From: Omnitrophica WOR_2 bacterium RIFOXYA2_FULL_38_17
Lineage (GTDB): Bacteria > Omnitrophota > Gorgyraeia > Zapsychrales > Zapsychraceae
NCBI GenBank assembly: GCA_001805965.1
Contig: MHHG01000018.1
Coordinates: 4,306 to 65,969, forward strand
DNA length: 61,664 bases
Reading direction: 5' to 3'
This document shows, piece by piece, positions 12,398-45,491 of the stretch; the first letter of the stretch is position 1, and every line of letters starts with the position of its first letter. The position numbers and the translations under genes are program-made. The notes under the pieces are model-generated. The model was not told the DNA's origin. It worked only from the letters and a program-made list of their open reading frames with translations, and did not search any database.

Positions 12398-12592
12398 ATG
12401 AACAAAAAAGATGTTTTAACTGTAAATGAAGTTGTGGAATGCTTCAGAATTTATCCATATGCAGTAAAACGATTAGTCTGAGCTGGGAAACTCCCGGGCT
12501 TTAAAACTGGTGGACAGAGGAGATTTAAAAAAAAAGAAATCAGAAAATCAAAATTTAAAGGGAGGATCTGCAGTTCAGCCTACCTAAGTTAA
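12398..12592 (+). pseudogene. excisionase-family (MerR-like HTH_17) DNA-binding gene interrupted by an in-frame TGA
   Basis: MNKKDVLTVNEVVECFRIYPYAVKRLV-stop(12479-12481)-AGKLPGFKTGGQRRFKKKEI. The two halves together match the excisionase HTH consensus (LTxxEvA...vyrLixxGkLPafKiGgxwRFxxxei). Divergent from the recombinase operon. Confidence 0.7.
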
Positions 12593-12629
12593 TACATACC
12601 AACAACATAATCTAATAGAATATAACCGT

Positions 12630-12647
12630 GCTAACAAGATGCTAACA
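12630..12647 (+). repeat. junction motif copy 1: GCTAACAagatGCTAACA
   Basis: 7-bp direct repeat with 11-bp phasing. The imperfect palindrome CTGCAGTTCAG lies at 12568-12578. Confidence 0.7.
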
Positions 12648-12716
12648 AGAATTTCGTAGGTTCTTTTTGGATTTGTAATATGAAACACTAATGACGGTTT
12701 TATAATTAATTTGGGA

Positions 12717-13010
12717 TTATTTTAATATTTCTTCTATTTTTTTTAATACTAAGTCACTTTTGAAAGGCTTTTCTATAAAGGGTGCTTCGACTTCATTTCT
12801 ATCTTTAATGCCAAGTGTTTTTCTTTGTGGGAATTGGTCTCTAATAGGTACAATGTCCTCCCCAATAACAAGATTTACATCCTTAGCATTATTCAATATT
12901 TCGGCACACATCTCAATGCTTTCAGTCAAAATCAAATCGTAAATATCAGATAAAATTAAGTTAAGTGATTCTCTAATGGCAGCAGTTTTTGAACAAATTA
13001 ATATTTTCAT
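12717..13010 (-). CDS. stand-alone receiver-like (CheY-fold) protein, probable pseudo-receiver
   Basis: KILICSKT...YDLILTES...IEKPFKSDLVLKKIEEIL follows the receiver-domain layout, but the acidic pocket (DD) and the phospho-acceptor Asp appear replaced (SK; LILTE). Confidence 0.55.
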   Translation of the reverse strand: MKILICSKTAAIRESLNLILSDIYDLILTESIEMCAEILNNAKDVNLVIGEDIVPIRDQFPQRKTLGIKDRNEVEAPFIEKPFKSDLVLKKIEEILK

Positions 13011-13561
13011 TTTGCAGTAACCTTTATTAGTTTAGCGATTTTATTTTGAGTGTTTTTAATAGAATACTCTTTTCCAGGGTTTATGTAAATAGCCTCTTCT
13101 TCCGCCAATCTGTATGATTCCTTACCAAGGGTCACTTCAACTTGACCAGTAGCAACAAAGAGGAAGAGTTCTTTAGTAATCTTTTCTTTTTCAGAAGTTC
13201 CATTTGGATTAAGAGTTAATAGTGTTGGAACCATTTTCTTATATTCTATATTCTTTGTAAGCAATTGTGCTGAAACATCACCCCTAGTTACAATATCAGG
13301 TTTTTCGGGTGAGTCTGTAACTTCAACATTAGAATGTGTTGTCTTGATGTTCCGGTATAGCTCTGATAGTTCAATTCCAAGAAAATAGGCAATCTTGTGA
13401 TGCGTTTCAATAGTTCCTGTCATTTTGTTGTGTTCTATTCTAGATAACGTTGCTATTTGCACGCCTGTTAATTTGGCTAGTTTAGAGAGAGATATCTTTT
13501 GTGCTTTCCGCAGGTTTTTTAGCTTATCGCCAATTAGAATTTTGTCTTCACTTTTTTTCAT
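13007..13561 (-). CDS. XRE-family HTH transcriptional regulator with C-terminal cupin domain
   Basis: HTH_3 segment LKNLRKAQKISLSKLAKLTGVQIATLSRIEHNK. Cupin-like segment ELFLFVATGQVEVTLGKESYRLAEEEAIYINPGKEYSIKN. Its stop overlaps the start of the receiver-like gene. Confidence 0.8.
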   Translation of the reverse strand: MKKSEDKILIGDKLKNLRKAQKISLSKLAKLTGVQIATLSRIEHNKMTGTIETHHKIAYFLGIELSELYRNIKTTHSNVEVTDSPEKPDIVTRGDVSAQLLTKNIEYKKMVPTLLTLNPNGTSEKEKITKELFLFVATGQVEVTLGKESYRLAEEEAIYINPGKEYSIKNTQNKIAKLIKVTAK

Positions 13562-13672
13562 TAAAGTTATTATAAGGGATTTTGATAATTAATCAAATAT
13601 TTGTTTGATAGAGAATAAAACAGTCTTTTGAAAAATCTTTGAATTAACTTTAGAATTATATTAGAAGAAGGT

Positions 13673-14953
13673 ATGGCTAAATATATTTATAAAAGAAACA
13701 TTAATTTTAAGAATTATGTTTCAAAAGCAGACAAGAAAAGAATACTTGGAGTTGCCTTGGATACCTCTAAAACGTTTCATAGAGTAATAATCTTTAATTT
13801 TATTGGTGAACTGGTAGTGAAACCATTCTCTATTGATACTCTGCAAAATGGTTATGATGAGCTAAAAAGACAAATTGATATTGCTCAAAGAAGGATTAAG
13901 GCACAAAGAACATATATTGCGTTGGAAACTCCTGCACGGTATACGGAAAACTTAGTTTATCATTTAAGAAAAGACTATAAATGGGTTGTATTTGTCCCTC
14001 CATATGAGGTTGCACAAAATAGAGAACAAAGAAGATTAAAAGGACTAAAGAGTGATGAAATAGATTGTGGATCGGTAGCTGATTTGATGTTAAGAGGTGA
14101 ATTTAACATGGTATGTGATGAAAAGAGTTTATATTTAAGGTTAAGAAATCTTGTTTATTGGAGGGAACAGAAGTTAATAATGAGGGCAATGATAAAGAAT
14201 CAGTTACACCATAGATTTGAGAAAATATACCCTGGAATGAATACGGACTATGGAGAAACAAAAAAATTATTTACTAAACCATATTTATCATTTCTGCATA
14301 TCGGACTATTAAATACCCAATTAACATCAAAAGAGATTATGGAATGTGATAATGAAATATTGTTGAAACAATTTAATTATAATAATCATCCTATAGGTCC
14401 ATTTCAAATTAAGTTACTAAAAAAAAGAATAGGAGAGATGTTGTTGCCGGAAGAAAGAGTATCAAAAGTAGAGATTGAATCTTTGGCAAAAGATATGGAG
14501 TTATTGAGATTTTATGATGTTGTTATTGAAAAGGTTGAGAATGAAATTGTTCAGTACGGTTCTCAGACATTAGCAAAGTATTTATTTGACCAAATAGCAG
14601 GTGTAAGTAATCTTAGTGCTTCTGTATATGTAGGAGTAATAGGTGACCCTGTAAAATATAAATCAGCTGGTCATATTTATTCTTATGCTGGATTGAATCC
14701 AAAAAGAAGACAGAGTGGAAAAATGAATTTAACATCAATTGGGATAAGCAGAATAGGTAATTCTTTACTAAGATGCTTGTTGTTTAGGATAGCATCTCAA
14801 GTAATTTTATGTAACTCATTTTTTAAAGACTATTATCATAAACTGAGAGTTGATAAAAGGAAGAGTTGGAAAGAGTCAAAGATAATAATATGTAGAAAAT
14901 TAAATAATATCTTTTTTGCTTTAATGAGGGATAAGGCTGAATATAACAAATAA
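13673..14953 (+). CDS. IS110-family transposase/recombinase (DEDD RuvC-like domain plus Transposase_20 domain)
   Basis: ILGVALDTSKTFH, IALETPARY, KSDEIDCGSVADL (DEDD positions). C-terminal YAGLNPKRRQSGKMN...GISRIGNSLLRCLLF is typical of IS110/IS1111 enzymes. Confidence 0.85.
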   Translation: MAKYIYKRNINFKNYVSKADKKRILGVALDTSKTFHRVIIFNFIGELVVKPFSIDTLQNGYDELKRQIDIAQRRIKAQRTYIALETPARYTENLVYHLRKDYKWVVFVPPYEVAQNREQRRLKGLKSDEIDCGSVADLMLRGEFNMVCDEKSLYLRLRNLVYWREQKLIMRAMIKNQLHHRFEKIYPGMNTDYGETKKLFTKPYLSFLHIGLLNTQLTSKEIMECDNEILLKQFNYNNHPIGPFQIKLLKKRIGEMLLPEERVSKVEIESLAKDMELLRFYDVVIEKVENEIVQYGSQTLAKYLFDQIAGVSNLSASVYVGVIGDPVKYKSAGHIYSYAGLNPKRRQSGKMNLTSIGISRIGNSLLRCLLFRIASQVILCNSFFKDYYHKLRVDKRKSWKESKIIICRKLNNIFFALMRDKAEYNK

Positions 14954-15110
14954 GCTGCTGGAAGTTCGTCATGAGGTATAGGCTTAAAAGCCTTTTTTTT
15001 CGATTGAATATTCTCTAGTTGCAAAATGAATACGTTAAATCATTTAAGCTTAAAGCTTGTCAATATGTTTTGTATCGTTTGCAATTGTGTGAGAAACCAG
15101 CAGCTTATTT
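14948..15110 (+). repeat. perfect 14-bp inverted repeat in the IS110 3' flank
   Basis: AAATAAGCTGCTGG (14948-14961, spanning the transposase stop) pairs with CCAGCAGCTTATTT (15097-15110). Confidence 0.8.
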
Positions 15111-15234
15111 ACCTGTCCTAGTATGGCCATCATATTCATGTTGACGAATTGGATAATTAAACGTATATTCGGTACACTATTTGCTTATATTTTAAGCATT
15201 GGGATAATCTTTCTATTATAAATTGGAGGAGAAG

Positions 15235-16182
15235 ATGAAGATTAAAGGTCTAATTATTATTGCTCTGTTGTTGCTTATTTCCATTCCCGCACACGCTTTT
15301 ATTTATGAGATTACCCCGATAGGCCCGCAGAATTATTCCATTGCCTCAGCCATAAATGATTTGGGTCAGGTTGTAGGGTACGGACTTTATTCCTCGCAGG
15401 CATTTGTGTGGGAAGATGGAACAACGACGACATTGGAAGGGGCTAATAGCGTGGCTTATGACATTAACAATTTAGGCCAGGTTGTAGGATCTTCTGGAAA
15501 TCAAGCGTCACTCTGGGAGAATGGGACAAGGACAATACTGGGCTCATCGGTATCTGGTTCTGCTAACGCAATAAATAATTACGGTCAGATTGTGGGAAAT
15601 GAATTTTCAGTTGGAGCGTTTTATTGGGATGGGGAGATGAATGCTTTGGGCTTTATTGGTTCGAGTGCGGAAAATATAAACGATTTGGGTCAGGTCGTGG
15701 GAAGAGATCAGGACGGCAATGGGGTTCTCTGGCAAAACGGGATAATGACAAACTTGGGGATTGGTATGGTCTCAGCATATTCTGATATAAATAATTCCAG
15801 TCAGATTGTAGGCCGCACAATAAATTATCCGTTTCTTTGGCAGAATGGTGTAATTACTGATTTGAATGTTCCGTGGTCCCTTCATGTTGCTCTCAATGAT
15901 GCTGGTCAGATTGTGATTCCCGATGATTATGGGCATGCATTTCTTTGGCAGAACGGAGAAGTGATTGACCTACTCAATACAGTACCTTCTGATTCAGGTT
16001 GGACTGGTTTGGGCGTGAGCGATATAAACAATAAAGGACAGATAGTGGGAAATGGTTGGTTTCAAAATGAGTTTCGGATGTATCTTATGACGCCAGTCAA
16101 TAACGCTGTCCCAGAACCAACAACACTCCTTCTATTTGGCACAGGACTAGCAGGCGCATTCTTCAGGAAACGTAGTGTTTAG
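15235..16182 (+). CDS. PEP-CTERM sorting-domain protein with HAF-type extracellular repeats
   Basis: Signal peptide. About ten I-N-D/N-x-G-Q-V/I-VG repeats and a GHAFLWQNG motif. C-terminal VPEPTTLLLFGTGLAGAFFRKR. ATG 15235 follows GGAGGAG; the track starts at TTG 15223. Confidence 0.85.
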   Translation: MKIKGLIIIALLLLISIPAHAFIYEITPIGPQNYSIASAINDLGQVVGYGLYSSQAFVWEDGTTTTLEGANSVAYDINNLGQVVGSSGNQASLWENGTRTILGSSVSGSANAINNYGQIVGNEFSVGAFYWDGEMNALGFIGSSAENINDLGQVVGRDQDGNGVLWQNGIMTNLGIGMVSAYSDINNSSQIVGRTINYPFLWQNGVITDLNVPWSLHVALNDAGQIVIPDDYGHAFLWQNGEVIDLLNTVPSDSGWTGLGVSDINNKGQIVGNGWFQNEFRMYLMTPVNNAVPEPTTLLLFGTGLAGAFFRKRSV

Positions 16183-16360: not shown

Positions 16361-16387
16361 GGCAACTCGCAAGGGTTGTCTTTTTTT
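16361..16387 (+). terminator. rho-independent terminator
   Basis: GGCAAC/GTTGTC stem (one G-U pair) followed by T7. Confidence 0.5.
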
Positions 16388-16400
16388 GTTAGGGGGATAG

Positions 16401-19218: not shown

Positions 19219-20015
19219 AAAATACAAATATAGCTTTATCTTTAGTGTTAGTTATATTTCTTAATCAGCAACTATCTGAAGCGAGAAGTGGGTGTTGTTC
19301 GCATCATAGCGGTGTTTGTGGTTGTCTGTGTTGTGATGGTTCGCCTCTATCATCAACATGTGCCCCCTATTATCCTTATTGTAGTACTTCTTCAAAAATT
19401 GTTCCAAAATTAGATTATCAAAAAAAGAATATTTTTCCTAATAATGTATATTCAACCACTAATGTAAAAATTAGTGAGTTGATTGATGATGTAGGTATAT
19501 TTGAAGACAAAACAAATAAAGAGTTATACAGGGTAGAACGGGTAATTGATGGGGATACGCTTCTATTAACCAGTGGCGAAAGAGTCCGATTAATAGGTAT
19601 AGATACCCCTGAGAGCAAACCTAATGACAAAGCTAAGAGAGATGCCACGCGAGAAGGTAAGGATATTGAAACTATTACTAAGATGGGCAAAGAGGCAGCT
19701 GAGTTTGTTAAAGCTTTGATTAAGCCAGGTGATGAGGTAAGGATTGAGTTTGATGTTCAAGATAGGGATAAGTATGGCAGATTATTGGCGTATGTTTATA
19801 AGTTAATATGCTTAAATGATTGTCAAATATATTTCGTTAAAGATGAATATTCCAAATTAGATGACGGGTGGTATGAGTTTATTAACGCTACGATTATCAA
19901 AGAGGGCTACGCATCACCAATGACCATTCCGCCAAATGTTAAGTATGCAGATTTGTTTAAGGAGTTGTATAAAGAAGCTCGTGAGAACAACCGAGGATTG
20001 TGGAGGGAAGAATGA
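19215..20015 (+). CDS. secreted thermonuclease (SNase-like) with Cys-rich N-terminal region
   Basis: Signal peptide; GCCSHHSGVCGCLCCDG segment; SNase core VIDGDTLLLTSGERVRLIGIDTPE...DKYGRLLAYVY...EGYA. Confidence 0.8.
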   Translation: MKNTNIALSLVLVIFLNQQLSEARSGCCSHHSGVCGCLCCDGSPLSSTCAPYYPYCSTSSKIVPKLDYQKKNIFPNNVYSTTNVKISELIDDVGIFEDKTNKELYRVERVIDGDTLLLTSGERVRLIGIDTPESKPNDKAKRDATREGKDIETITKMGKEAAEFVKALIKPGDEVRIEFDVQDRDKYGRLLAYVYKLICLNDCQIYFVKDEYSKLDDGWYEFINATIIKEGYASPMTIPPNVKYADLFKELYKEARENNRGLWREE

Positions 20016-21085: not shown

Positions 21086-21382
21086 TTGGGGCTGGTATTT
21101 AAGGAGTTATATAAAGAGGCTCGAGATAATAATAGAGGGTTATGGGGTAATGATGCTCCATCGCATAACAAGAATTTATCCGAATGTCAAAAGGCAGGTG
21201 GTCGGTTAACAAAAACAAGGGAATGTGATGGTTCTGAAAGTGTTTGGTGTTTCATCTCGGAAAAGGAAGAATGTTATGCAGACCAAGTTAGCAAGGGAAA
21301 GTGTACGGTTGGAGAATATTCAGAGGAGTTAAGAGGAATTGTTGGTATTAGTCCACGAGTTCTTTGTGATAGTGAACAATAA
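21086..21382 (+). pseudogene. remnant of a second SNase gene (C-terminal tail only) joined to a Cys-rich segment
   Basis: FKELYKEARDNNRGLWG repeats the last residues of the 19215-20015 nuclease (FKELYKEARENNRGLW). The nucleotide similarity between 19957-20005 and 21095-21145 is visible by eye. No nuclease core is present. Confidence 0.45.
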
Positions 21383-21391
21383 AAAGGAGTT

Positions 21392-21634
21392 GTGAAAATC
21401 AAAAAAACATTTAACAAAAAAGCCTCAGCATTAATTGTTGTATTAATTGCTCTTGTAATTATTGCAATAATGTTTTCTTTAAGTATGCGTAAAAAAGAAC
21501 CTGGAGCTAACAATAATTCAAAAGGATTCTTAAAGGAATCGGGAGTGGATGCTTCAAGTTATAAAAGTACGCTTGATAGCACAAAAAAAGTTATAGCAGA
21601 CGTGGAAGCTTCACGAGAAAATGTGGATTATTAA
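21392..21634 (+). CDS. small single-pass membrane protein
   Basis: GTG start after AAGGAG; hydrophobic helix ALIVVLIALVIIAIMF. Confidence 0.4.
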   Translation: MKIKKTFNKKASALIVVLIALVIIAIMFSLSMRKKEPGANNNSKGFLKESGVDASSYKSTLDSTKKVIADVEASRENVDY

Positions 21635-21660
21635 ATTTTAGGGGTACAATTATTATCTAG

Positions 21661-21684
21661 GCAAGCCGAAAGGTTTGTCTTTTT
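21661..21684 (+). terminator. rho-independent terminator (GAAA tetraloop)
   Basis: CAAGCC-GAAA-GGTTTG stem-loop followed by TCTTTTT. Confidence 0.5.
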
Positions 21685-21733
21685 CTGTGTTGATAAATTA
21701 ATTGGACTATAAATATTTCCAGTAGGAGTTCCT

Positions 21734-22060
21734 ATGAATATATTTAAAGCAGTATTTCGAACTCAAAAACAAGACTGTATCCATTTATATGATGAAGCTA
21801 AAAAGAAAAAACCTGGTAAGGCAGAAAAAGAATATTTAAAGCTTATATTATTAACAAAGCCACCGTTTGATTATCAGATTGATATAGTACTGGAAAGAAT
21901 TTTGAAAGATTTTAAGTCAATAGATAAATTAGCAGATTTTATAGATAAAATACCTGTCGATGATGATATGTGGAAAAGCAGAGCAAGAAATATTAAAATT
22001 TACAAAAAACAAATAGAGCATAGAAATATGTTATTCTTTAAAGAATTTTGGTTAGAATAA
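21734..22060 (+). CDS. hypothetical protein
   Basis: 108-aa ORF with RBS AGGAG upstream. No recognisable family. Confidence 0.4.
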   Translation: MNIFKAVFRTQKQDCIHLYDEAKKKKPGKAEKEYLKLILLTKPPFDYQIDIVLERILKDFKSIDKLADFIDKIPVDDDMWKSRARNIKIYKKQIEHRNMLFFKEFWLE

Positions 22061-22229
22061 AAGTTTTAGAAGTAAAATGTTAATTATTATAAGAAGGATC
22101 GTAAATGACTTTCAGGTAGATACTCTGATGGTCGGATTAGTCCAAGATGCTTTACAAATTATATAAATAGTTATAATATAAGAACTTAAGTTTCTGTGTA
22201 AATTTGTTGTGTATTCTAAGGTTTTTTGT

Positions 22230-22247
22230 GCTAACCGGGTGCTAACA
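22230..22247 (+). repeat. junction motif copy 2: GCTAACCgggtGCTAACA
   Basis: Same 7-bp direct repeat with 11-bp phasing. The degenerate palindrome CTGATGGTCGG lies at 22135-22145. Confidence 0.7.
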
Positions 22248-22276
22248 AATTGTTTGTTTTTTCCGGAAGTAATTTT

Positions 22277-23434
22277 ATGAAAAGAAAAAAGAATATATTA
22301 TTGAACTCTAAACCGGAATATTATGATGATATTCTAATTCACCCGATTATTTTTGATGGAATAAAGAAGGTGTATTCAGTTGAAATATGGTTAAGACGTA
22401 TATTCATGATAATTCTTGATATTTCCTATGGAAAGGACTATGCAGATAAGATTCCTAAAGAGTTAAGGCAGAAGTTAATTGATAGGATGCGCCCTTTTAA
22501 GGATTTAGCGTATGTTTATGAGAGGAAGAGTTGGCATCTTATTGAGACAGCGTGGCTTGATGAATTTGGATCATTATTAATAGATAATGAGGTTAAAAGT
22601 CTTTTTAGGGATTTTACAGGGACAACCGTAGGAATGTTTAAAGAGAATATAAAAGGGTTTATTAACTTAAGAAATCTTATAGCGCATAATCATGGATTTT
22701 CGGTCGAAGCAATGTCTGAGCTTGAACGCCTAGAAAAGTATTTTAAAAAAATGAGAAAAATTTTTCTAAAAAATATTTACAACAACAGTATTAAAAATAT
22801 CTATTCCAATGTAGCAATGAAAGACCCATCAGGACAAAAGTATTCCATTGATGGTTATATGTCTGTTGGTTCAAAATTTGATATTACCGAAGATGGCGAG
22901 ATTCCTTTTAAACCTGATGAGGAAATATTTTTATATAAGATACTCAAAAACAATATTGATCTTAAATGGCCCCTATCAATTCATGTAGACAAGCTAAAAC
23001 ATAATTATGTGATTACATATGTTAACCAAGATAATAAATTAAGAGTAGAAGGAGATCCCTCCTTTTCTAAAGTATCAGAGAAGAATTACTCAGCGCTTGT
23101 TGATAAATTCTCTATGATTGACGATATTGTTTCCGCATTTTTAGTTTGTAAGTACTATATAGTATTTTTGATACCTACAGCACTGGTAAAAGATAATCCA
23201 ATAAAAAAGGCTGATGTTCTAATGAATGCTATTAGCGAGATCCATAGGGATTTATTTTCTAAAAGAAAGTCTATAAAAAAGGAAAAATTTGAGAATTATT
23301 TCTATCCCAAGATATGGTTGCTAGACAAAATAATGAAGGAAAATAAGAGCTTTATGACTGTCTGGAAAGATGATTCAGTAGGCTTACAGATTCCTATAGG
23401 AAATGATCCGCTTGATATTGATTCGGATGATTAA
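22277..23434 (+). CDS. Swt1-like HEPN domain protein with an uncharacterised C-terminal domain
   Basis: N-terminal EIWLRRIFMIILDISYGKDYADKIPKELRQK ... INLRNLIAHNHG (Rx4H HEPN motif in the RNxxAH form), plus about 200 aa of unknown sequence. ATG 22277 is preferred over TTG 22250. Confidence 0.65.
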   Translation: MKRKKNILLNSKPEYYDDILIHPIIFDGIKKVYSVEIWLRRIFMIILDISYGKDYADKIPKELRQKLIDRMRPFKDLAYVYERKSWHLIETAWLDEFGSLLIDNEVKSLFRDFTGTTVGMFKENIKGFINLRNLIAHNHGFSVEAMSELERLEKYFKKMRKIFLKNIYNNSIKNIYSNVAMKDPSGQKYSIDGYMSVGSKFDITEDGEIPFKPDEEIFLYKILKNNIDLKWPLSIHVDKLKHNYVITYVNQDNKLRVEGDPSFSKVSEKNYSALVDKFSMIDDIVSAFLVCKYYIVFLIPTALVKDNPIKKADVLMNAISEIHRDLFSKRKSIKKEKFENYFYPKIWLLDKIMKENKSFMTVWKDDSVGLQIPIGNDPLDIDSDD

Positions 23435-23533
23435 TCTAGGGGACATTAGGTCGGCACCCTGAAGGTCAGGGATAGATAAGCATCTCAAATTAAATAGGTT
23501 AAGGAATAGAAATGCTGCCCTGGCTATCAGGGG

Positions 23534-23551
23534 GCTAACATTCGACTAAAC
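23534..23551 (+). repeat. junction motif copy 3: GCTAACAttcgACTAAAC
   Basis: 11-bp phased repeat. CCTGAAGGTCAG lies at 23458-23469. Confidence 0.7.
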
Positions 23552-31423: not shown

Positions 31424-31501
31424 TGGACAGTGAACCTGAAGGTCAGTGAGCAGTAAATGTTTTGCGCTATCAATGAGTTAGTATTAAGTTAGTTGCTATG
31501 G

Positions 31502-31519
31502 GCTAACAATTGACTAACA
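31502..31519 (+). repeat. junction motif copy 4: GCTAACAattgACTAACA
   Basis: 11-bp phased repeat. CCTGAAGGTCAG lies at 31435-31446. Confidence 0.7.
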
Positions 31520-31580
31520 AAGCGTTAATTATAATATGTATGAAACTTGCTGTTATTAATCAGCTATATGAGGGGTAAGT

Positions 31581-32354
31581 ATGGATGATAAATTAGTTAA
31601 TATCTTACAGTTACAGATAGAAAAGTGCGAAATAATATTAAATGAGTATGTAGCAGATAGATCTGATTATTCTCTTTATGTTTTAGAGAATAAGAGTGGT
31701 CAATGGATAACAGAGACAGAAAATTATTTAAAATATGCAATTGAAAACAAGCAATATCAAGAAGAGTTTAAAGAACGCAGAGTATATGATGGAGATGGTT
31801 ATAATAATGCCATAAATTCCGTCGGTACCCTATATGAGAAATTAGGTTATCTAAATTCATTTGTAGAATTATTAAAAGAGGGTTATATATCTAGCAAGCC
31901 TGTTATTCTAAAAAATAATAAGAATTCAAGAGATGTTTTTGTTGCAATGTGGTTTGATGAACAAATGGATGAATTTTATAACTCTGGCATTAAGCCGACG
32001 ATAGAAAAATTAGGATATAATCCATTGAGAGTTGATGAGCATCAGCACAACAATAAAATAGATCTTGAGATTATTTCTCAAATTGAAAAAGCTGCATTCT
32101 TAGTAGCAGATTTAACAGGAGATAGAGGCGGAGTATATTATGAAACAGGTTATGCGAAAGGTTTGGGAATCCAGGTTATTTATTCTGTTAGATGTGATTA
32201 TCATAAGAAAGTACATTTTGATATTGAACATGAAAATTTAATTATTTGGGATAACATAAAGGTATATTCACAAAAATTAGAAAAAAGAGTAAGTGGAACT
32301 TTTGGTGTGTTTAAGAACTCTTACAAAAAAAATGAAATAGATTGGGAAGAATAA
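31581..32354 (+). CDS. nucleoside 2-deoxyribosyltransferase-like (NDT/TIR-like Rossmannoid) domain protein with a helical N-terminal domain
   Basis: C-terminal half VFVAMWFD...AAFLVADLTGDRGGVYYETGYAKGLGIQVIY matches the NDT-like pattern (strand-Gly/Asp loop, D-x-G-x-x-x-E-x-G-y-A). Confidence 0.6.
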   Translation: MDDKLVNILQLQIEKCEIILNEYVADRSDYSLYVLENKSGQWITETENYLKYAIENKQYQEEFKERRVYDGDGYNNAINSVGTLYEKLGYLNSFVELLKEGYISSKPVILKNNKNSRDVFVAMWFDEQMDEFYNSGIKPTIEKLGYNPLRVDEHQHNNKIDLEIISQIEKAAFLVADLTGDRGGVYYETGYAKGLGIQVIYSVRCDYHKKVHFDIEHENLIIWDNIKVYSQKLEKRVSGTFGVFKNSYKKNEIDWEE

Positions 32355-32818
32355 AACTAAAAGAATTCAGAAATAATTAATTTTAAAACTATTTGTGAAT
32401 AATAATTATTTGCTAGGAAGAACGAATATCTTCAATTTCAACAATTATTATCTCCATCGATAAAATGCGTTGCCAATAAAGATAGTACATCTTGGATTAT
32501 GACTAAGATGTCGAGGTTAATATATTCTCTATAATAGTCTATTTTATGGTTTAGAATTTTAATTGTACCTCCTTATTTTTTTAATTTTTCTCATGTATTT
32601 TAAGAAAAAGCTGTTATTATTATATTAGAAACAATCATATTAGAAATGATTGTAAGAAGCATAGAAGTAAAACAACTATAGAATTGTGATTAATAGAACT
32701 TGAAGGGAGTTTATCTTCAAGTCAATAGGGAAAATCACAAGTGTTGAATAAACGCAGGATAACTGTGGAAAAACACTTGGGATTTTCCCTTTTTTTATGC
32801 TCAAGAAAGGAGCTAAAG

Positions 32819-34084
32819 ATGAAAATAGAGGTTATTTCGATAAATAAGTTAAAACCGGCAGTATATAATCCCCGAGTTTCATTAAAACCGGGTGACAAAG
32901 ATTACGAAAAGTTAAAAAACAGTATCGCCACGTTTGGTTATGTAGAGCCAATTGTATGGAATCGCAAAACGGGAAATGTTGTGGGAGGGCATCAGCGGGC
33001 TGAAGTTCTTAAGCAAGAAGGGTATGAGGAAGTGGAAGTTGTTGTTGTCGAGCTTTCACTTGATAAAGAAAAATCGTTAAATCTTGCTTTAAATAAGATC
33101 AGCGGAAGGTGGGATGAAGAAAAATTATCGTTATTGCTCAGTGAATTAACCCGAATTCCTGATTTTGATGTTGGGCTAACGGGTTTTGAGATGCCTGAAA
33201 TTACAAATCTTTTTGACAAATTTAATGAAAAACAAGATGATGATTTTGATTTTTCTTCTGAGTTAAATAACATTGAAACGCCAGTTACTCAAAAAGGAGA
33301 ACTCATTGAACTCGGGTCCCACCGATTGCTTTGTGGCGATTCATCGAAAGAAGAGGATATAAAAAGATTATTATCCGGACAGAAAGTTAGGCTTATCCAT
33401 ACCGACCCACCTTATAATGTGAATTATTATGGAGGAAACCGCCCAACGCCTAAAGCCCGGCCAAAGAACTCTCGTCATTGGGAGAGGATATACTCAGATG
33501 ACATGACGCAAGAACAATATGAACAATGGTTAAAGAATATCCTGTCTAATACAAAGGAAGTTCTGCAAGAAGGGGCTCCATTTTATATATGGAATGGACA
33601 TAAACAGTTTGGTCCGATGCATCAGATGTTGACTGCACTGGATCTTCATGTTGCTTGTGTTATTACATGGGCTAAACCTAATTTTGCTATTGGCTATGGG
33701 GATTATAATCAGCAGACAGAGTTTTGTCTTTACGGATGGAAGAAAGGTAATGCACATTTTTGGAACGGTCCAACCAATGAATCTACTCTTTGGGAAATTC
33801 ATCGGGACTCGACAAAACAATATATCCATCCAACCCAGAAACCCATTGCCTTGGCACAAAGAGCAATGAGAAATAGTTCGCAACATGGAGATGTTGTTTT
33901 TGATCTGTTTCTGGGATCGGGATCGACCTTGATTGCTGCTGAAAGTCTGGGGCGCCGCTGTTTTGGAATAGAAATCGATCCGAAATATTGTGATGCTATT
34001 GTGAGGAGATATATATCTTTTGTTGGGATAGATAAGGTTTCAGGTGACTTGAGAAAGAAATTCATCAAGGAGGTGAAGTTATGA
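32819..34084 (+). CDS. ParB-like nuclease domain fused to an N4/N6 DNA methyltransferase (beta class)
   Basis: ParB-N segment LKPAVYNPR...VVGGHQR; DPPY motif IHTDPPYNVNY; SAM motif FDLFLGSGST. ATG 32819 follows AAAGGAG; the track starts at GTG 32741. Confidence 0.85.
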   Translation: MKIEVISINKLKPAVYNPRVSLKPGDKDYEKLKNSIATFGYVEPIVWNRKTGNVVGGHQRAEVLKQEGYEEVEVVVVELSLDKEKSLNLALNKISGRWDEEKLSLLLSELTRIPDFDVGLTGFEMPEITNLFDKFNEKQDDDFDFSSELNNIETPVTQKGELIELGSHRLLCGDSSKEEDIKRLLSGQKVRLIHTDPPYNVNYYGGNRPTPKARPKNSRHWERIYSDDMTQEQYEQWLKNILSNTKEVLQEGAPFYIWNGHKQFGPMHQMLTALDLHVACVITWAKPNFAIGYGDYNQQTEFCLYGWKKGNAHFWNGPTNESTLWEIHRDSTKQYIHPTQKPIALAQRAMRNSSQHGDVVFDLFLGSGSTLIAAESLGRRCFGIEIDPKYCDAIVRRYISFVGIDKVSGDLRKKFIKEVKL

Positions 34085-34752
34085 CAAAATATTCATTAAC
34101 TTCGAAGAAGGAAGAATTCCCAGTATTAGTCATTATTCAACATATTAAAGATGGTCGGCTTGATCCAAAAACCATAAATAAAGATCTAAGACAGCAGTGT
34201 GTTGAGGTTTTATTGCTGGAGGGGTATGGTGTTTCTTCTTTGGCGCAGATCTTTATTAGAAGTGACAAGACTATAAGGCGGGACATAGAAGAGATCAGAG
34301 AGAGAAATGCTATCTCGCCTAAAGCGGATTTGGCAAGAAAGATAATAGGGGAAATGGTTGTAAACGCACGTAATCACCAGGGCTATTTAATGCGATTAGC
34401 CCGATCTCAGGGCGCTTCTGTGAGTGAAAAGGGACAATGTGAGTATTTAGCTGCATTGGTATTATTTCAGAACGTTTCCAAACTTCAGTCTCTTGGGTAT
34501 TTGCCTTCACAACCAAAAACAGTTGTGGGTGAACTATTCCATTATTATGAGGAAGATCGAAAGAGTATCCCTGAATATAAGAAGATAATCAAGGATTTAG
34601 AGTTAACAGCTAAAAAAACAGGGAGTCTTACACCTGAAGTGGCAAAAGAGATCAGACAACTGAAACAGCAAGTTAATGAAGCTGATATTCATGAAAAAGT
34701 GAATAGTTTGACTGAAAGAAACAAAATAAAAAAAACTAGACTAAAAAGTTAA
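34081..34752 (+). CDS. HTH protein in the small-terminase position
   Basis: HTH-like GYGVSSLAQIFIRSDKTIRRDIEEI. Located directly upstream of the large terminase-like gene. The start overlaps the methyltransferase stop. Confidence 0.4.
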   Translation: MTKYSLTSKKEEFPVLVIIQHIKDGRLDPKTINKDLRQQCVEVLLLEGYGVSSLAQIFIRSDKTIRRDIEEIRERNAISPKADLARKIIGEMVVNARNHQGYLMRLARSQGASVSEKGQCEYLAALVLFQNVSKLQSLGYLPSQPKTVVGELFHYYEEDRKSIPEYKKIIKDLELTAKKTGSLTPEVAKEIRQLKQQVNEADIHEKVNSLTERNKIKKTRLKS

Positions 34753-34773
34753 AAAGAAAAGAGGAGAAGCTAC

Positions 34774-36399
34774 ATGAAGGATAAAATTGAAAAAAGAATT
34801 AGTGCTACAAGAAGAATCGCCGGAAGAAATTTCGCATTTTTCCGCAAAGAATACTTTTCGCATTACTGTGATATTCCTGATTCTGTGTTTCATGAAGAAC
34901 TTTCTCATGATCTTTCGAAAATGACATTAAAAAGAAGTGTGAAATTTGCACTTGCGGCCCCTCGTGATAGTGGAAAAAGTACAATTATCAGTGCTATTTA
35001 TGTGATTTACTGTATTTGTTATAAGCTTGAGGATTTTATAGTGATAATTTCCAATACAAGTGAGCAGGCAGCTAGTTTTTTATGTGATATAAAAAAAGAG
35101 TTTGAAATGAATGAAAAACTAATAAGTGATTTTCCTGATGTCTGTGAGAAAGGAAAACCACCCAGATGGTCTCGGCGGGAAATAGTTACGCGCAATGGAG
35201 TGAAGGTTTTGGCTTTAGGTTCAAATCAGCAGATTAGGGGAAGACGTAATAAATCCTTCAGGCCTTCACTTATCATTCTAGATGATGTGGAAACAGATGA
35301 AAGTGCAAAAAATCCGGAGAGTTACCATAAACTTGAAGATTGGATTACAAAGGCAGTTTTAAAAGCGGGGACATCTGAAACGAATGTGATTTTTGTAGGA
35401 ACTATTCACCATTATGGATCATTGCTGGCTCAGTTTACGTCAGACAAGTCACATCCTGGATGGAGTAAGGGTATTTATCGTTCTATAATTTCTTATTCTA
35501 GTTCTCCTGATTTATGGCAAAGATGGATACAAATCTTTAATTATCAAGAATTTTATAAAGATCAGGAAGGGCCGGATGCTGCGAGATTGTTTTTCGAAGA
35601 CAATCAGAAAGGAATGCTGATGGGAACGGAAGTTTTGTGGCCTGAAAAGAGAGGTTATTATGATCTCATGGTCATGAGAGAGGAAGATGGGTATCTGAGT
35701 TTTGATAGTGAAATGCAAAATGACCCGGTTAACCCAAGAGATTGCTTGTTTAATTTAGATGAAATGCATTACTGGGATGATAAATTTGCATCTGAAGAAG
35801 AGCTGATAGCATCTTTTGCGAATGATACTATATGGTATGGATCTTGTGATCCAAGTATGGGGAAACATAGAAATAAGGGGGATTTTTCAGCTATTATTAC
35901 AATAGTTAAGAATAGAATAACAGGAACAATATATGTAATTAGTGCAGATATTGCCAGAAGAGACCCTGATAAAATTATCAATGATGTTCTCATGCATCAC
36001 AGAATTCGACAATACAAAGAATTCTCTTTTGAATCTAACAATTTTCAGGAATATCTTTCGTCACAATTGATGAAAAGATCACAAGAAGAGGGCATATATC
36101 TTCCATTAAAAGAAATCAAACATACTTCTGATAAAACGGAAAGAATTATGTGGTTACAGCTGTTCTTGAAAAAAGGAACGATACAACTTTCCAGAAAGCA
36201 TCATACGCTTCTTGAACAGATGAAGTTTTTTCCAAAAGGAAAATATGATGATGGACTTGATGCCTTGGAAATGGTTTTTCATCTTTGTTACAATAACGGG
36301 AGTAACAGTTTAGAAATCTTTGAGAGACAATTAAAAAATATGCGTCTTTCAAAATCAAGAAATGAAATAATGAAACGTAATAGGCTTTTGGTTTATTAA
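34774..36399 (+). CDS. phage terminase large subunit-like ATPase/nuclease
   Basis: Walker A ALAAPRDSGKST, Walker B LIILDDVETDE, IRGRR arginine finger region, VGTIHH, and a C-terminal RNaseH-like part GSCDPSMGK...DGLDALEM. Confidence 0.75.
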   Translation: MKDKIEKRISATRRIAGRNFAFFRKEYFSHYCDIPDSVFHEELSHDLSKMTLKRSVKFALAAPRDSGKSTIISAIYVIYCICYKLEDFIVIISNTSEQAASFLCDIKKEFEMNEKLISDFPDVCEKGKPPRWSRREIVTRNGVKVLALGSNQQIRGRRNKSFRPSLIILDDVETDESAKNPESYHKLEDWITKAVLKAGTSETNVIFVGTIHHYGSLLAQFTSDKSHPGWSKGIYRSIISYSSSPDLWQRWIQIFNYQEFYKDQEGPDAARLFFEDNQKGMLMGTEVLWPEKRGYYDLMVMREEDGYLSFDSEMQNDPVNPRDCLFNLDEMHYWDDKFASEEELIASFANDTIWYGSCDPSMGKHRNKGDFSAIITIVKNRITGTIYVISADIARRDPDKIINDVLMHHRIRQYKEFSFESNNFQEYLSSQLMKRSQEEGIYLPLKEIKHTSDKTERIMWLQLFLKKGTIQLSRKHHTLLEQMKFFPKGKYDDGLDALEMVFHLCYNNGSNSLEIFERQLKNMRLSKSRNEIMKRNRLLVY

Positions 36400-36520
36400 G
36401 GGAAGGTATTTCAGGTGAGGTGCTGAATTAAAATTGACATGTTTGTTTGGGAGGATTAGAATATTTCTATTGATTGAATAGTCCCGAGTTTGAAGGGGGC
36501 AACCCGGACGTTAAAAAAGT

Positions 36521-36566
36521 AAAACCTTCGCTTGGCAGGATTGTGCTCAGCGGAGGTTTTTTATTT
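36521..36566 (+). terminator. rho-independent terminator after the terminase-like gene
   Basis: AAAACCTTCGC ... GCGGAGGTTTT stem (one G-U pair) followed by a T-rich run. Confidence 0.5.
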
Positions 36567-36621
36567 AAAAAGAAGGAAAAAATGAGAAAAATACTGGAAA
36601 CTTTTATAGGGGAGAGTTAAT

Positions 36622-37617
36622 GTGAGCGTTATTGCTGGAAGTTCTCTTTTTCAAGGCGTGATATTGCTGGCTGACTCTAGAGTAACTATACGCAGGCTTG
36701 GACGGAAAGATGTTTATTGTGATAATGCACAAAAATTATTTCCGTTATCTCCTAACTCTGTGCTTGGTTTTGTTGGAGATCTTAAAACTGCTGCTCCCTT
36801 AATTCGAGAGCTATTGAGGCAAATAGAGCAGAAGTATAAACAAGGCCATGCAAAAAGAGTTCATCCACTTTCATTATTACGATGGTTACCTCGTTATTTT
36901 AGATCTGCGTATAAATATTTATCTAAGAAATGGGATGTTGGGCGTGTGGATTTTATGATAGGGTCGGTTATTCCTGAAAAAAACAACGTTATTGAAAGAG
37001 TCAAAGTTGTTGAAATTATGGAAAGATTTAGACTTGGAAAACTTTCTGCACAGCGAAATTGGTTGCCTGGCATACTTATAAAAATATTAAAGATGCCTGT
37101 TGATAAGAAGTATATTGTTTTATCAGATGTGCCAGCAAATCTGCTTTATTATATGCAATCTCCCAAATTTGTGCCCAGTTTTTTAGCACCATTAGAATAT
37201 GCGGCAATAGGTTCAGGTGATAAAGTTATAATGGATATTGATAGAAATGCTGATTGGATTTTTGCGGGTGAAGTTGGTAATTCTTTTCAGGAATCTATGG
37301 CCCTGCGTGAAACAGTCAGTTCATTTATTGAAAAAAATTCTATAATTTCTGTTGGAGGGTTGTATCCTGCAATCAAAATATATAAGGATCACATAGATTA
37401 TTTATGCTATAGCATGCAAATACCTGCAGGTGGTTCCACATTCGAATTAAGTATAAATAAAGATCGACGATGGATACAAAAAAACAAGTTGACTGGTAAA
37501 GAAATTAAATTGCTATTTCCATGGGAAATAGATCCAAATGAATATCATCATGATGAAAGATTTGATGATCTTAAAGATGCATTAAGTAGAACGAAAATAC
37601 GGACTATAAAAAAGTAA
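36622..37617 (+). CDS. proteasome beta/HslV-like Ntn hydrolase homologue with a predicted Ser1 nucleophile and C-terminal extension
   Basis: GTG start after AGGGGAGAG. (M)SVIAGSS...GVILLADSRVT...DNAQKLFPL...GFVGDLKTA...AAIGSGDKV parallels TTIAG...GVVLAADTRAT...K33...G-x-aG-D...AIGSGS of proteasome beta subunits. Confidence 0.55.
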   Translation: MSVIAGSSLFQGVILLADSRVTIRRLGRKDVYCDNAQKLFPLSPNSVLGFVGDLKTAAPLIRELLRQIEQKYKQGHAKRVHPLSLLRWLPRYFRSAYKYLSKKWDVGRVDFMIGSVIPEKNNVIERVKVVEIMERFRLGKLSAQRNWLPGILIKILKMPVDKKYIVLSDVPANLLYYMQSPKFVPSFLAPLEYAAIGSGDKVIMDIDRNADWIFAGEVGNSFQESMALRETVSSFIEKNSIISVGGLYPAIKIYKDHIDYLCYSMQIPAGGSTFELSINKDRRWIQKNKLTGKEIKLLFPWEIDPNEYHHDERFDDLKDALSRTKIRTIKK

Positions 37618-37684
37618 GACCTTCCTGTGATAGGAATGGTCTTGGCGAAAGTTCTTTGTTTTATGCGATAAAGGGTTATTACTA

Positions 37685-43505: not shown

Positions 43506-43613
43506 TAGTAGAAAAATTGCGTATAGGATTTAGTGCTATTGTAATTGGGGTTGAACAAAATGATTATGTTAAAAAGATTTATTAACAATATAATATTTCG
43601 AAGGAGAGTGTAT

Positions 43614-43910
43614 ATGGATGTAGAACAAAGAGAAGCCAAGTATGGGGAAAAAATGATTGAGATAAAAGTGAGGTTTTGGACCGATCAGATTGCAAAAGAT
43701 AAAGGAAATATAAAGCCAAAACATTGTTGGGATGCAGGTGTAGTCAGAGTTAAGACAAACAATGTGCACGATATTAAGCCTAAACAACCAATTTTGTTTC
43801 GATCTTTAATGGATATTCCACGAGCAATTGAAGATTGTTTAATTGAGAATGGAATAACCGCGCATACAGAGAATTGTAGTAGCAAGTATATATATGTGGA
43901 TGAATTATAA
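43614..43910 (+). CDS. hypothetical protein
   Basis: ATG 43614 follows AAGGAG; 98 aa; no recognised family. Confidence 0.4.
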   Translation: MDVEQREAKYGEKMIEIKVRFWTDQIAKDKGNIKPKHCWDAGVVRVKTNNVHDIKPKQPILFRSLMDIPRAIEDCLIENGITAHTENCSSKYIYVDEL

Positions 43911-44014
43911 ATAGTTATTTTAAACAATATTGCTAATTTTCAAAAATTTGTTAAATAATTAATTTGTGGTAAAGTCCAGTATTAGAAAAATTTAATAAAA
44001 TAAACGGCAAAAAT

Positions 44015-44537
44015 ATGCAGAATAATATTTTAAAATGTTATACGGTTGGTCACTCAACTTATTCTGTTGAACAGCTAATAGCTCTAATTAAGAAGCAAAA
44101 TGTGGATACACTTGTTGATGTTAGAAGCACTCCTTATAGCTAATATATGTCTCAATTTAATCGAGAGTTCTTTAAGAAAGAATTAAATAAGGCATTCAGT
44201 ATCTCTATTTAGGGGAAGGGTTGGGTGCTAGGCATGGTGATTATACTTTATTTTTGAAAATAAAGCTGTGTCAGATTTTAGGCGTGTCCGAGAAGCAGAC
44301 GTGTTTATAGGGGATATTTTTAAATTGTTGAGAGTAATACAAAAAGGTCATGTTCTTTCATTGATGTGCGCGGAGAAAGATCCTTTTGACTGCCATAGGT
44401 TTGCTCTTGTTTCTTATGAATTGGAGAAAAACAATATTAATGTAAATCATATTTTGGAGAGTGGCTTATTAATATCAAGTAACGATATGGAAGAAAAATT
44501 GCTTATAGGCAAGAAGATTTGTTTGGGGCGATTATAA
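44015..44537 (+). pseudogene. decayed DUF488 gene
   Basis: MQNNILKCYTVGHSTYSVEQLIALIKKQNVDTLVDVRSTPYS-TAA(44141). The DUF488 segments IQYLYLGEGLGARHGDY and LMCAEKDPFDCHRFAL continue in other frames, so there is one nonsense codon and at least two frameshifts. Confidence 0.7.
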
Positions 44538-44625
44538 GGGAGAGTGCAATAGAGGGAGGAGATGTCAAAAGGAATTGGGTTATTGGGTATGAGCAAGAGG
44601 TGCGGGTAAGATATAGGGAATAAAG

Positions 44626-44820
44626 AAGATTAAATTATATACGATTGGTTTTGCAAAAAAAAACAGCTAAAGATTTCTTTTAGAAAAAAAAGAGATCAAA
44701 AAGCTAGTTGATATAAGATTAAATAGAAAATCGCAATTAGCAGGGTTTGCAAAAGAAGATGATTTGGAATATTTTCTCAAGGAAGTTACAGGTATTAACT
44801 ATTTTCCGATAAGGGATTAA
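44626..44820 (+). pseudogene. second DUF488-like fragment (no start codon, internal stop, truncated)
   Basis: KIKLYTIGFAKKNS-stop-RFLLEKKEIKKLVDIRLNRKSQLAGFAKEDDLEYFLKEV matches the N-terminal third of a DUF488 subfamily. Confidence 0.55.
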
Positions 44821-44834
44821 ATTAGCGATATTGA

Positions 44835-45266
44835 ATGAGTTTATTTGAAAAATTTTACCAAAACATACCGAGATATCCTAAAATTTCTATAATAGAAGAA
44901 AGACGGCTGATAGCTAAGGCGAAAAAAGGTTATCCAAGAGAGATTGATGAACTTGTTTTGAGGCATATTGGCTTTGTTATTTATAGAATTCATAAGAAAA
45001 CATTTCCTTCTTATATCGAGCGCTTTGGTGAAGATATTTTCTCTGAGGCTATTTTTATTTTGTACGATAAAATAAAAAATTATAATTTGCGATATAAGGA
45101 TAAGCATGGTGAGTTTAAACCTGTTCGATTTTCTTCCTACATTTGGAAGAGGATTGATGGATTTATTCTCGATTCATTAAAAGCAGAGCTCGAGAGGGAG
45201 AGTCGACACTCAACGCCGGATTGGGAAAGATATGACAGCGGAAAATGTAATGTCCAGGTCTCTTAG
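44835..45266 (+). CDS. sigma-70 family region-2-only protein (truncated sigma-like)
   Basis: EERRLIAKAKKG...DELVLRHIGFVIYRIHKK...FSEAIFILYDKIKNY...SSYIWKRIDGFILD resembles regions 2.1-2.4. No region 4 HTH is present. Confidence 0.5.
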   Translation: MSLFEKFYQNIPRYPKISIIEERRLIAKAKKGYPREIDELVLRHIGFVIYRIHKKTFPSYIERFGEDIFSEAIFILYDKIKNYNLRYKDKHGEFKPVRFSSYIWKRIDGFILDSLKAELERESRHSTPDWERYDSGKCNVQVS

Positions 45267-45477
45267 GTGGACATTGTTTAACTGTTCCAGCGATATATGT
45301 TTATGTAAATTGTTATCTTGAAAAAGTGGACAAATAGGACATAATTTTGATTAATTTTCCTTATAACATTTTCTCCACTTGAAGCAGTTATAAGGCGATT
45401 CTCTGATTGATTGAATTTCCTTATGTAGAATTATAACAGAGGAATATTATATGATTAGCTCAGGGAGAGGAAAAGGG

Positions 45478-45491
45478 TGTTAGCTGTTAGC
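45478..45491 (-). repeat. junction motif copy 5, inverted and back-to-back (GCTAACAGCTAACA on the minus strand)
   Basis: The plus strand reads TGTTAGCTGTTAGC, followed directly by a C8 tract and then GCCAAAT. Confidence 0.6.

Follow-up and report, generated by a model that had tools for sequence, protein, structure and literature searches.

A 61,664-nt stretch of contig MHHG01000018.1 from Omnitrophica WOR_2 bacterium RIFOXYA2_FULL_38_17 (the window, in what follows) contains a genomic island in which a pair of GCTAACA heptamers, separated by four nucleotides, recurs between modules of unrelated genes. Our analyses show that the heptamer pair terminates, on the 3′ side, a discrete, strand-specific, conserved non-coding element of 95–145 nt, in which an upstream motif (box A, CTGAAGGTCA) is separated by a fixed-length spacer from the two heptamers, themselves 11 bp apart. 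Homologous elements are found in the genome of another member of Omnitrophota, where they bracket genes not homologous to those in the window, so that the cassette-wise acquisition considered in an earlier reading of the window (hereafter the original prediction) gains support. As to the role of the element, our first choice, made partly by analogy and held tentatively, with less than even confidence, is a putative protein-bound DNA junction or regulatory cassette, which would punctuate and co-regulate the modules and supply the homology for their exchange.

The recurrence of the motif, the initial claim of the original prediction, stands up well to statistics. With at most one mismatch, GCTAACA-N4-GCTAACA begins at positions 12630, 22230, 23523 and 31502, in all four cases on the plus strand and within the island, as against a chance expectation of 0.03, and none of 100 shuffled sequences reached four occurrences; the 25 kb of host flank has none. 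The 7-4-7 direct-repeat geometry is likewise as first described. The signal resides in the phased pair, since the single heptamer is little or not enriched: exact copies are mildly in excess (13 versus 6.3 expected), those with at most one mismatch are not (147 versus about 175 in shuffled sequences). When three mismatches are allowed in the pair the signal is gone (seven found, 4.55 expected). The bipartite pattern of box A (at most two mismatches) followed 35–105 nt on by the heptamer pair (at most three mismatches) occurs in the window only at the four sites, locally shuffled sequence giving 0.2. Some details had to be amended. The third copy is real, though its register is better set at 23523 (GCTATCA-GGGG-GCTAACA) than at 23534, there being three heptamers in phase, of which 23534 marks the second and third. 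Of the imperfect palindromes placed 62–95 nt upstream of the heptamers, the one put at 22135 begins at 22125 and is thus 105 nt from the motif, not 95. The copies were all described as intergenic, which is true of the heptamers of copy 1, whereas the palindrome at 12568 lies within the last codons of an interrupted HTH_17 open reading frame (ORF).

The architecture of the element was defined from 11 copies representing five loci. Box A precedes heptamer 1 by 64 nt in seven of the nine short copies (62 and 66 nt in the other two) and by 105–106 nt in both copies of the B subtype, distances that correspond to about six and about ten helical turns, respectively; the extra 41–42 nt of the B subtype thus amount to about four turns. 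The sequences of box A and the heptamers do not vary, and both motifs are kept, along with the 64-nt distance, across diverged subtypes, while copies within one island are only about 50% alike. Alignments with homologues from outside the window reveal sharp edges, with similarity setting in about 7–15 nt 5′ of box A and ending a few bases past heptamer 2. The motif is, therefore, the terminal part of a larger conserved element rather than a free-standing operator. It occupies the space that separates a defence-type gene, at its stop codon, from the ribosome-binding site of the following gene: the upstream stop codon precedes box A by 12–24 nt in copies 3 and 4 and by 65 nt in copy 2 and is overlapped by the element in locus L233 (see below), and the next start codon follows heptamer 2 at 18–61 nt in six of the seven cases that are clear. 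Around box A, 8/11 copies carry stop codons in every reading frame, and every one of the 11 copies is co-oriented with the flanking genes. It is thus confirmed that the element lies at the boundaries of modules and points the same way as the genes that follow.

The four copies in the window (table 1) differ in what surrounds them. Copy 2 is located 29 nt 5′ of the ATG of a gene for a 385-aa protein (22277–23434). Copy 3, which bears a degenerate third heptamer (ACTAAAC, 23545–23551), precedes the HSDR_N/N6_Mtase gene, whose start is at 23563 or 23575, and copy 4 lies 61 nt 5′ of a gene for a 257-aa protein (31581–32354). The latter two copies have in common the 12-mer CCTGAAGGTCAG, found 64–66 nt 5′ of heptamer 1. 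Copy 1, recognized by the A/D profile with an nhmmer E-value of 8.5e-16, may be the remnant of a promoter region, because copies 1 and 2 are alike for about 40 nt past the heptamers, in an alignment that reaches down to TATGAAA, the start codon in copy 2.

Table 1. Copies of the linker element in the window and in locus L235 (contig JAHJCZ010000041.1), together with the attachment sites and integration genes of the island.
Feature	Sequence	Position	Strand	Remarks
attL identity block CCCGCCAAAT	window	8913–8922	+	3′ end of tRNA-Asp (8842–8919); island begins after the block
Large serine recombinase	window	10163–11788	−	Resolvase, Recombinase and Zn_ribbon_recom domains
DUF2924 gene	window	11793–12236	−	with the serine recombinase, integration module of the island
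Excisionase-family HTH_17 ORF	window	12398–12592	+	in-frame TGA at 12479–12481; 3′ end overlaps box A of copy 1
Copy 1, A/D-like subtype	window	12555–12649	+	degenerate box A CTGCAGTTCAG 12568–12578; heptamers 12630–12636 and 12641–12647; distance 62 nt
Copy 2, B subtype (long spacer)	window	22111–22254	+	box A CTGATGGTCGG 22125–22135; GCTAACC 22230–22236, GCTAACA 22241–22247; distance 105 nt
Copy 3, C subtype	window	23443–23551	+	box A CCTGAAGGTCAG 23458–23469; GCTATCA 23523–23529, GCTAACA 23534–23540
Copy 4, D subtype	window	31420–31523	+	box A CCTGAAGGTCAG 31435–31446; GCTAACA 31502–31508, ACTAACA 31513–31519; distance 66 nt
Two abutting heptamers (GCTAACAGCTAACA on minus strand)	window	45478–45491	−	7-bp spacing; no box A; 4 nt from attR identity block
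attR identity block CCCGCCAAAT	window	45496–45505	+	host sequence after the block exactly as in empty-site contig L002
Copy A0	L235	4342–4445		second heptamer degenerate
Copy A	L235	5062–5166		
Copy B	L235	9488–9624		L233 3111–3247
Copy C	L235	10853–10952		L233 1783–1882

Two scans with the pattern CCTGAAGGTCAG-N50–70-GGGCTAACA retrieved the element from outside the window. In metagenomes the pattern has six matches, three of which (L227, L230 and L231) align with copy 3 over about 100 nt; L227, L230 and L231/L236 carry one copy each, located 5′ of an N6_N4 methylase gene in L230 and between a pPIWI-associated nuclease gene and a NucS-like gene in L236. In the genome collection the scan led to a contig of an Omnitrophota metagenome-assembled genome (MAG), JAHJCZ010000041.1 (L233, extended as L235), which has four copies on one strand. 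Searches of the window and of 2.6 Mb of fetched loci with subtype profiles added no copy to these, and the viral contigs and plasmids searched had no copies either.

Copies 2 and 3 of the window belong to the same subtypes, B and C, as two of the copies in L235, and in both genomes B and C bracket a single gene. The B copies are 81.8% identical over 137 nt, with flanks that cannot be aligned, and the C copies 79.2% identical over 101 nt. In the window, B is followed by the gene for the 385-aa protein (without a Pfam match), C and the HSDR_N/N6_Mtase gene; in L235, B is followed by a gene for an HNH endonuclease (McrA-like), with an ORF that terminates within element C, and then by HsdM. The 385-aa protein and the endonuclease are unrelated to each other (best BLASTP E=0.35), and the sole protein similarity between the window and L235 at E<0.01 is one of 23% over the methylase core of HSDR_N/N6_Mtase and HsdM, whereas B, C and a third non-coding block are 79–86% identical between the two loci. 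Homologues of the L233 HNH gene in other lineages are not accompanied by the element, which is thus not linked to that gene. A further indication comes from three contigs of independent assemblies (L020–L022), all of which end at window position 23444, a few nucleotides before the left edge of copy C. Taken together, the sequence comparisons suggest that the islands may be controlled and reshuffled module by module.

The contigs L020–L022 were compared over window positions 21591–23444; one of them, L020, shares its sample of origin with the empty-site contig L002. The left context differs in L021, where a lamin-tail-domain-like gene is fused in frame at window position 21920, and the 108-aa ORF of the window (21734–22060) looks like a chimera.

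The mechanism that we propose is as follows. A sequence-specific protein encoded outside the island would bind the element as double-stranded DNA: the heptamer pair would offer a winged-helix or helix–turn–helix protein a tandem site along the same helical face, and box A would be a second site in helical register with it. Indeed, the fixed distances and the invariant box A and heptamers would favour proteins aligned on one face of the duplex. The element would halt translation, and perhaps transcription, from the upstream module and put each downstream module under common control; being the only sequence common to otherwise unrelated modules, it would also be the place where recombination between islands swaps them. 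Any binding protein is probably encoded by the host, since no island protein that could serve appears to be shared between the window and L235. The candidate binders named in the original prediction, i.e. the XRE-cupin protein, a receiver-like protein and the serine recombinase, are accordingly poor ones, having no detectable homologue in the 12.7 kb of L235.

As an analogy, the closest described system is the promoter-early stem-loop (PeSL), a mobile regulatory cassette of T4-type phages. PeSLs are composite intergenic motifs extending from the upstream stop codon to the Shine–Dalgarno sequence and start codon of the next gene and including stem-loops with G-T pairs (Arbiol et al. 2010, PMC2839356); their promoter and terminator activities have been demonstrated by experiment, and recombination between PeSLs swaps unrelated genes (PMC2839356; Comeau et al. 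2014, PMC4122927). The linker element resembles them in being a short, conserved intergenic cassette with the same span, with a stem-loop containing G-T pairs predicted in some copies and with several subclasses, in clustering in the most plastic regions and in flanking unrelated genes at equivalent positions, here in one genome pair. PeSLs, however, have a consensus sigma-70 promoter, which is recognizable in at most one or two of the four window copies, and the element differs from them in its phased heptamers with box A at a fixed 64 or 105 nt, in its length of 95–145 nt and in its residence in a bacterial chromosomal island rather than a phage. The minimal mobile and intergenic mosaic elements of Neisseria are comparable in that conserved flanks there enclose whole-gene cassettes that differ between strains and are exchanged by homologous recombination; the flanks are, however, mostly core genes or dRS3/RS repeats with many copies genome-wide, whereas the subtypes described here are single-copy and confined to islands.

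Several observations weigh against this reading of the element as a bound junction and control cassette. A scan for sigma-70-like promoters found only TTGACT-16-TAATAT at 31510–31537, overlapping heptamer 2 of copy 4, and nothing comparable at 22230, 23523 or 12630; by eye, TATAAA lies 11 nt past heptamer 2 in copy 3 and TATAAT 10 nt past it in copy 4, with no counterpart in copies 1 and 2. Copy 1 has no plus-strand gene downstream, the next genes being on the minus strand, and a promoter or operator role for the element is accordingly putative. Not every module boundary is marked, as the L236 island has a single copy in 21 kb. Module swapping is suggested by one genome pair (the B–X–C arrangement), the contig ends and the variant left context of L021, and the breakpoint of the latter is about 190 nt outside the element, inside an ORF. 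Well-covered sequencing runs display a single structure without structural variants at the elements. An identity of about 80% over 100–140 nt, the AT-rich middle included, exceeds what two protein sites need and would fit an RNA. Finally, the sequencing runs that carry the locus are of DNA only, with no RNA runs among them.

The island itself extends over approximately 8923–45505 of the window (36.6 kb) and stands out by its G+C content (31–38%, as opposed to 39–43% in the flanks). It is bounded by a direct repeat of CCCGCCAAAT, situated in the 3′ end of tRNA-Asp, and in the empty-site contig L002, which represents the same population, tRNA-Asp continues straight into the sequence 3′ of window position 45505. 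The cargo, as identified by Pfam scans, includes an XRE-cupin operon, an IS110 element, a PEP-CTERM protein, an M48/TPR/SNase block, a block resembling restriction–modification systems (HSDR_N-N6_Mtase, an S subunit, an SMC-like ATPase and DndE-HerA), a ParB-methylase block and further defence-type genes. Candidatus Omnitrophota MAGs are the source of L233, a related locus, and of the closest recombinase homologues whose origin is named.

Some other features of the island and its relatives deserve a record. The HTH_17 ORF next to the integration module matches its family with E=5e-10 once the TGA is read as Arg; this triplet occupies the place of an expected Arg codon (CGA) and is identical in all population contigs examined, such that the capacity of the island for excision may have been lost or the stop may be read through. 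The IS110-family transposase gene (13673–14953; DEDD_Tnp_IS110 and Transposase_20 domains) is followed by about 270 nt of non-coding DNA, and the related island L012 carries a different IS110 member. The gene for the PEP-CTERM protein (15223–16182) contains at least five repeats of 105–111 nt (ATAAATGATTTGGGTCAGGTTGTAGG...) within 15346–16054. A 48-nt stretch recurs with 81% identity at the end of the SNase gene (19956–20003) and at the start of a 98-aa ORF (21098–21145), which hints at duplication or recombination within the M48/SNase/TPR block. The region 32741–36399 has counterparts in the related recombinase islands L012 (5015–8497) and L239 (134–2135): the ParB_N-N6_N4 methylase gene, the gene for the HTH protein that follows and, in L012, the 541-aa gene are shared at 36–64% identity. 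These genes seem to represent an island backbone, in contrast to the modules at 12.6–32.7 kb. Near the right end, a non-coding stretch (45250–45420) with the motifs ATGTCCA..TGGACAT, GGACAAATAGGACA and CAGTTATAAGGCGATT.TCTGATTG is conserved in L013 (about 9310–9560), where it runs straight into a recombinase gene that lacks its N-terminal part; L013 has the appearance of such an island after a deletion.

A second conserved non-coding family (D4) was also found in the window and in L233. It has the form GTCCCGAGTT..CCCGGACGTTAAAAAAGTAAAACCTTC followed by a hairpin and a T-run, is terminator-like and exhibits compensatory changes in the stem. The D4 block occurs at window positions 36452–36569 and 37575–37664 and at L233 7389–7478 and 6377–6469, with 86% identity over 81 nt between the two genomes. 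In the window it stands just 5′ of two paralogous 331-aa genes, and in the Omnitrophota MAG 5′ of an unrelated DnaB_C-like gene.

Among the alternatives to the bound-DNA cassette, the one that fares best, although we consider it unlikely, is that the element is a site-specific recombination site at which genes or modules are inserted and excised at a fixed point at or near the heptamers, be it an attC-like site of an integrase-less array (CALIN) or an arm-type site for the recombinase or an excisionase (Xis)-like factor. As in CALIN, conserved sites in the same orientation as the genes and as one another directly follow a stop codon and end a little ahead of the next gene, are associated with unrelated cargo and need no adjacent integrase, and an imperfect hairpin with a variable loop is predicted for the B and C subtypes. 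The sites also carry stop codons in three frames, similarity breaks off right past heptamer 2, and contigs end at 23444. The geometry is, however, not that of attC: instead of inverted R″ (RYYYAAC) and R′ (GTTRRRY) boxes at opposite ends, both AAC heptamers are direct repeats at one end, and a GTT-type partner is lacking from CTGAAGGTCA at the 5′ end, whichever strand is read. The predicted hairpin falls to about chance level in some subtypes, some of the 'cassettes' would be 8–14 kb long with many genes, and IntI is missing; Pfam scans of the 36 island ORFs detected no tyrosine recombinase, only the large serine recombinase and the IS110 transposase. No excised or rearranged forms were seen in the runs examined, those of low coverage being uninformative. 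A role as the target of an IS110 bridge RNA was rejected too, as the flanks of the IS110 element bear no similarity to the motif.

A link to the serine recombinase is suggested by the fifth, inverted copy reported at the right edge of the island. The sequence TGTTAGCTGTTAGC is indeed present at 45478–45491 and followed by C8, and it does lie at the island edge, as the empty-site contig L002 shows. This doubled heptamer abuts the serine-recombinase crossover at attR and is part of the P arm of the reconstructed attP, which reads AAGGGTGTTAGCTGTTAGCCCCCCCC-GCCAAAT-TATTCCGGAAGGGGTAACCCTT. The motif of the P′ arm is conserved in relatives as AAGGGGnAnCCCTTA, without the heptamer, and the P arm resembles AAGGGTGTTAGCCCC with one 7-bp unit duplicated. 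The inverted pair is therefore more likely the serine recombinase's own arm site, possibly arisen by a 7-bp tandem duplication, than a copy of the element; its identity with the heptamer of the element is suggestive, the chance that a 50-bp attachment site holds the same 6-mer being roughly 2–3%. Arrays bound by Xis-type proteins (lambda Xis, P2 Cox, 186 Apl) offer a parallel in their direct repeats about one helical turn apart and in a short repeat both next to the attachment crossover and at internal sites, and an HTH_17 excisionase-family gene does lie near the recombinase and directly 5′ of copy 1, with HTH_17 genes in L236 as well. Here, however, the xis-like gene is interrupted by an in-frame stop, the pair at the attachment site has a 7-bp and not an 11-bp spacing, and related islands have no such repeats. 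A comparison was also made with the small Xis-like directionality factors of serine integrases (PMC5311408); the directionality factors known for serine integrases mostly act through protein–protein contact.

The distribution of the element is a further difficulty for a tie to the recombinase. The element is absent from L012, L013 and L239, which have recombinases 73–82% identical to that of the window and share its tRNA/V-ATPase locus or its backbone, as well as from 80 further loci with recombinases 36–53% identical. The idea that the motif is a trait of this family of recombinases and islands was rejected on these grounds. What could be a junction inside heptamer 2 is found in L235, where copy A0 shares GCTAACAGTATGC with copy A and then passes into a tRNA-like 3′ fragment. 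This fragment (4439–4478, with GGTTCGAGTCC) is joined directly to copy A0 after GCTAACAGTATGC and lies 320 nt beyond a 5′ tRNA fragment (4081–4119) with the anticodon loop CTCTTAA; ATGCGAA is repeated at both joints, and ARAGORN predicts no tRNA from the two fragments, whether as they stand or joined. If the box A–heptamer elements were attachment sites of an integron-like but attC-unrelated, previously undescribed cassette system, by which Omnitrophota and their relatives take up, excise and reshuffle entire defence genes or modules through site-specific recombination at or near the heptamers, a proposal that we regard as improbable, its recombinase would be encoded elsewhere in the genome or be the island serine recombinase acting with an Xis-type factor.

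A comparably improbable explanation is that the element acts as a structured or protein-bound RNA, i.e. as an intercistronic or 5′-leader site for processing or stability, or an attenuator, that controls the downstream defence genes. The strict co-orientation of all copies with the flanking genes, the position between stop codon and ribosome-binding site and the conservation of the entire 95–145 nt, AT-rich middle included, would all be expected of such an RNA, and the D4 hairpins in the same islands indicate that RNA-level signals are in use there. By folding, box A is also predicted to pair over a long range with the heptamer region; the resulting stem includes G-U pairs that would be mismatches on the other strand, and the z-scores are −2.1 (copy B) and −3.7 (copy C). 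The C-subtype stem comprises 19 positions, is interrupted and encloses a 46-nt loop. Position-by-position counts give 14–19 of these 19 pairs in the C subtype (all 19 in window copy 3) and 13 in the two B copies and L235-A, but 7–11 in the D-type copies and copy 1, chance being about 7; copy 1 even folds worse than its shuffles (z=+2.0). A stable stem is thus predicted in copies B and C only, with no U-tract, and is not kept in the D and A subtypes. RNAalifold recovers 13 consensus pairs, only two of them with a compensatory change, and the best-conserved parts are invariant rather than covarying. Rfam 15 yields no meaningful match to the elements or their homologues at E-values up to 10, the sole hits above the gathering score being two tRNAs. 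Nor would an RNA model predict that the extra length of the B subtype equals about four turns of DNA. With the sequence and spacing of box A and the heptamers kept throughout and the stem borne out only in the C subtype, the balance favours a DNA–protein complex, as our preferred reading has it.

It is still less likely, and in our view doubtful, that the 7-4-7 repeat alone is functional, as a plain operator for an OmpR/PhoB-type response regulator defining one host regulon and having no part in recombination. Two 7-bp direct repeats with a 4-bp gap and 11-bp phasing do have the geometry of a pho box, and the −10-like hexamers 10–11 nt past heptamer 2 in copies 3 and 4 are placed as in pho-box promoters. 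The half-site resembles the Bacillus subtilis PhoP repeat TTAACA-N5-TTAACA, the cyanobacterial CTTAACCT repeats and the CtrA site TTAA-N7-TTAAC. Such an operator does not, however, account for conservation that reaches 65–105 nt upstream, with a second motif at a fixed distance. The −10 spacing fails in copies 1 and 2, the host flank is devoid of copies, and no response regulator with a winged-helix output was found among the island ORFs scanned. Other promoter-type signals were considered and rejected: the GG-N10-GC rule of sigma-54 promoters fits copy 3 only; with the heptamer as the −35 box of an extracytoplasmic-function-type or sigma-70 promoter, the copies differ in their distance to any −10 or CGT motif; and AlpA-type antitermination uses a single 6-bp element as its site, without a phased repeat.

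The exact motif does recur elsewhere, 5′ of lipoprotein genes and in an 11-bp array, as the plain operator would have it. Among the matches listed in the exact-motif scan of the genome collection, most are due to chance. GCTAACA-N4-GCTAACA is nevertheless present, without box A, in contigs of Bacteroidota type. An Odoribacter MAG contig, CAMDJC010000015.1, has AAATTGCTAACATTTTGCTAACATTCGCTATTGG three times (L063 4629 and 6598; L099 364), 5′ of small lipoprotein genes near a sensor kinase, and a Bacteroidota-like contig (L100 5099–5150) has a six-unit, 11-bp tandem array, (GCTAACAGTAA)n, 5′ of a gene for a TPR/AraC-type regulator.

Least probable is a functionless relic, such as decaying, duplicated intergenic DNA or a small selfish repeat akin to miniature inverted-repeat transposable elements (MITEs) or REPINs that travels with the modules: no gene follows copy 1, the second heptamer of L235 A0 is degenerate and copies within the island are about 50% alike, but an identity of 79–82% at equivalent positions across genomes with unrelated neighbouring genes, and the persistence of box A, heptamers and their 64-nt distance across diverged subtypes, weigh against this view. 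Identification as a MITE, REP or REPIN was also rejected specifically, as the within-island copies are not near-identical, as those of an active MITE or REPIN would be, none occurs in the host flank, and terminal inverted repeats with target-site duplications were not seen.

Defence islands are known to be mosaics, but apart from integrons and phage hot spots there is mostly no explanation of the way in which modules are traded and brought under joint control. If the linker elements are both control and crossover points, as we tentatively propose, they would provide a sequence handle on defence cassettes in an uncultured phylum, a means of mapping the breakpoints of module exchange and a route to the protein that reads the element. 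If they should instead prove to be true site-specific sites, they would represent a new gene-cassette system.

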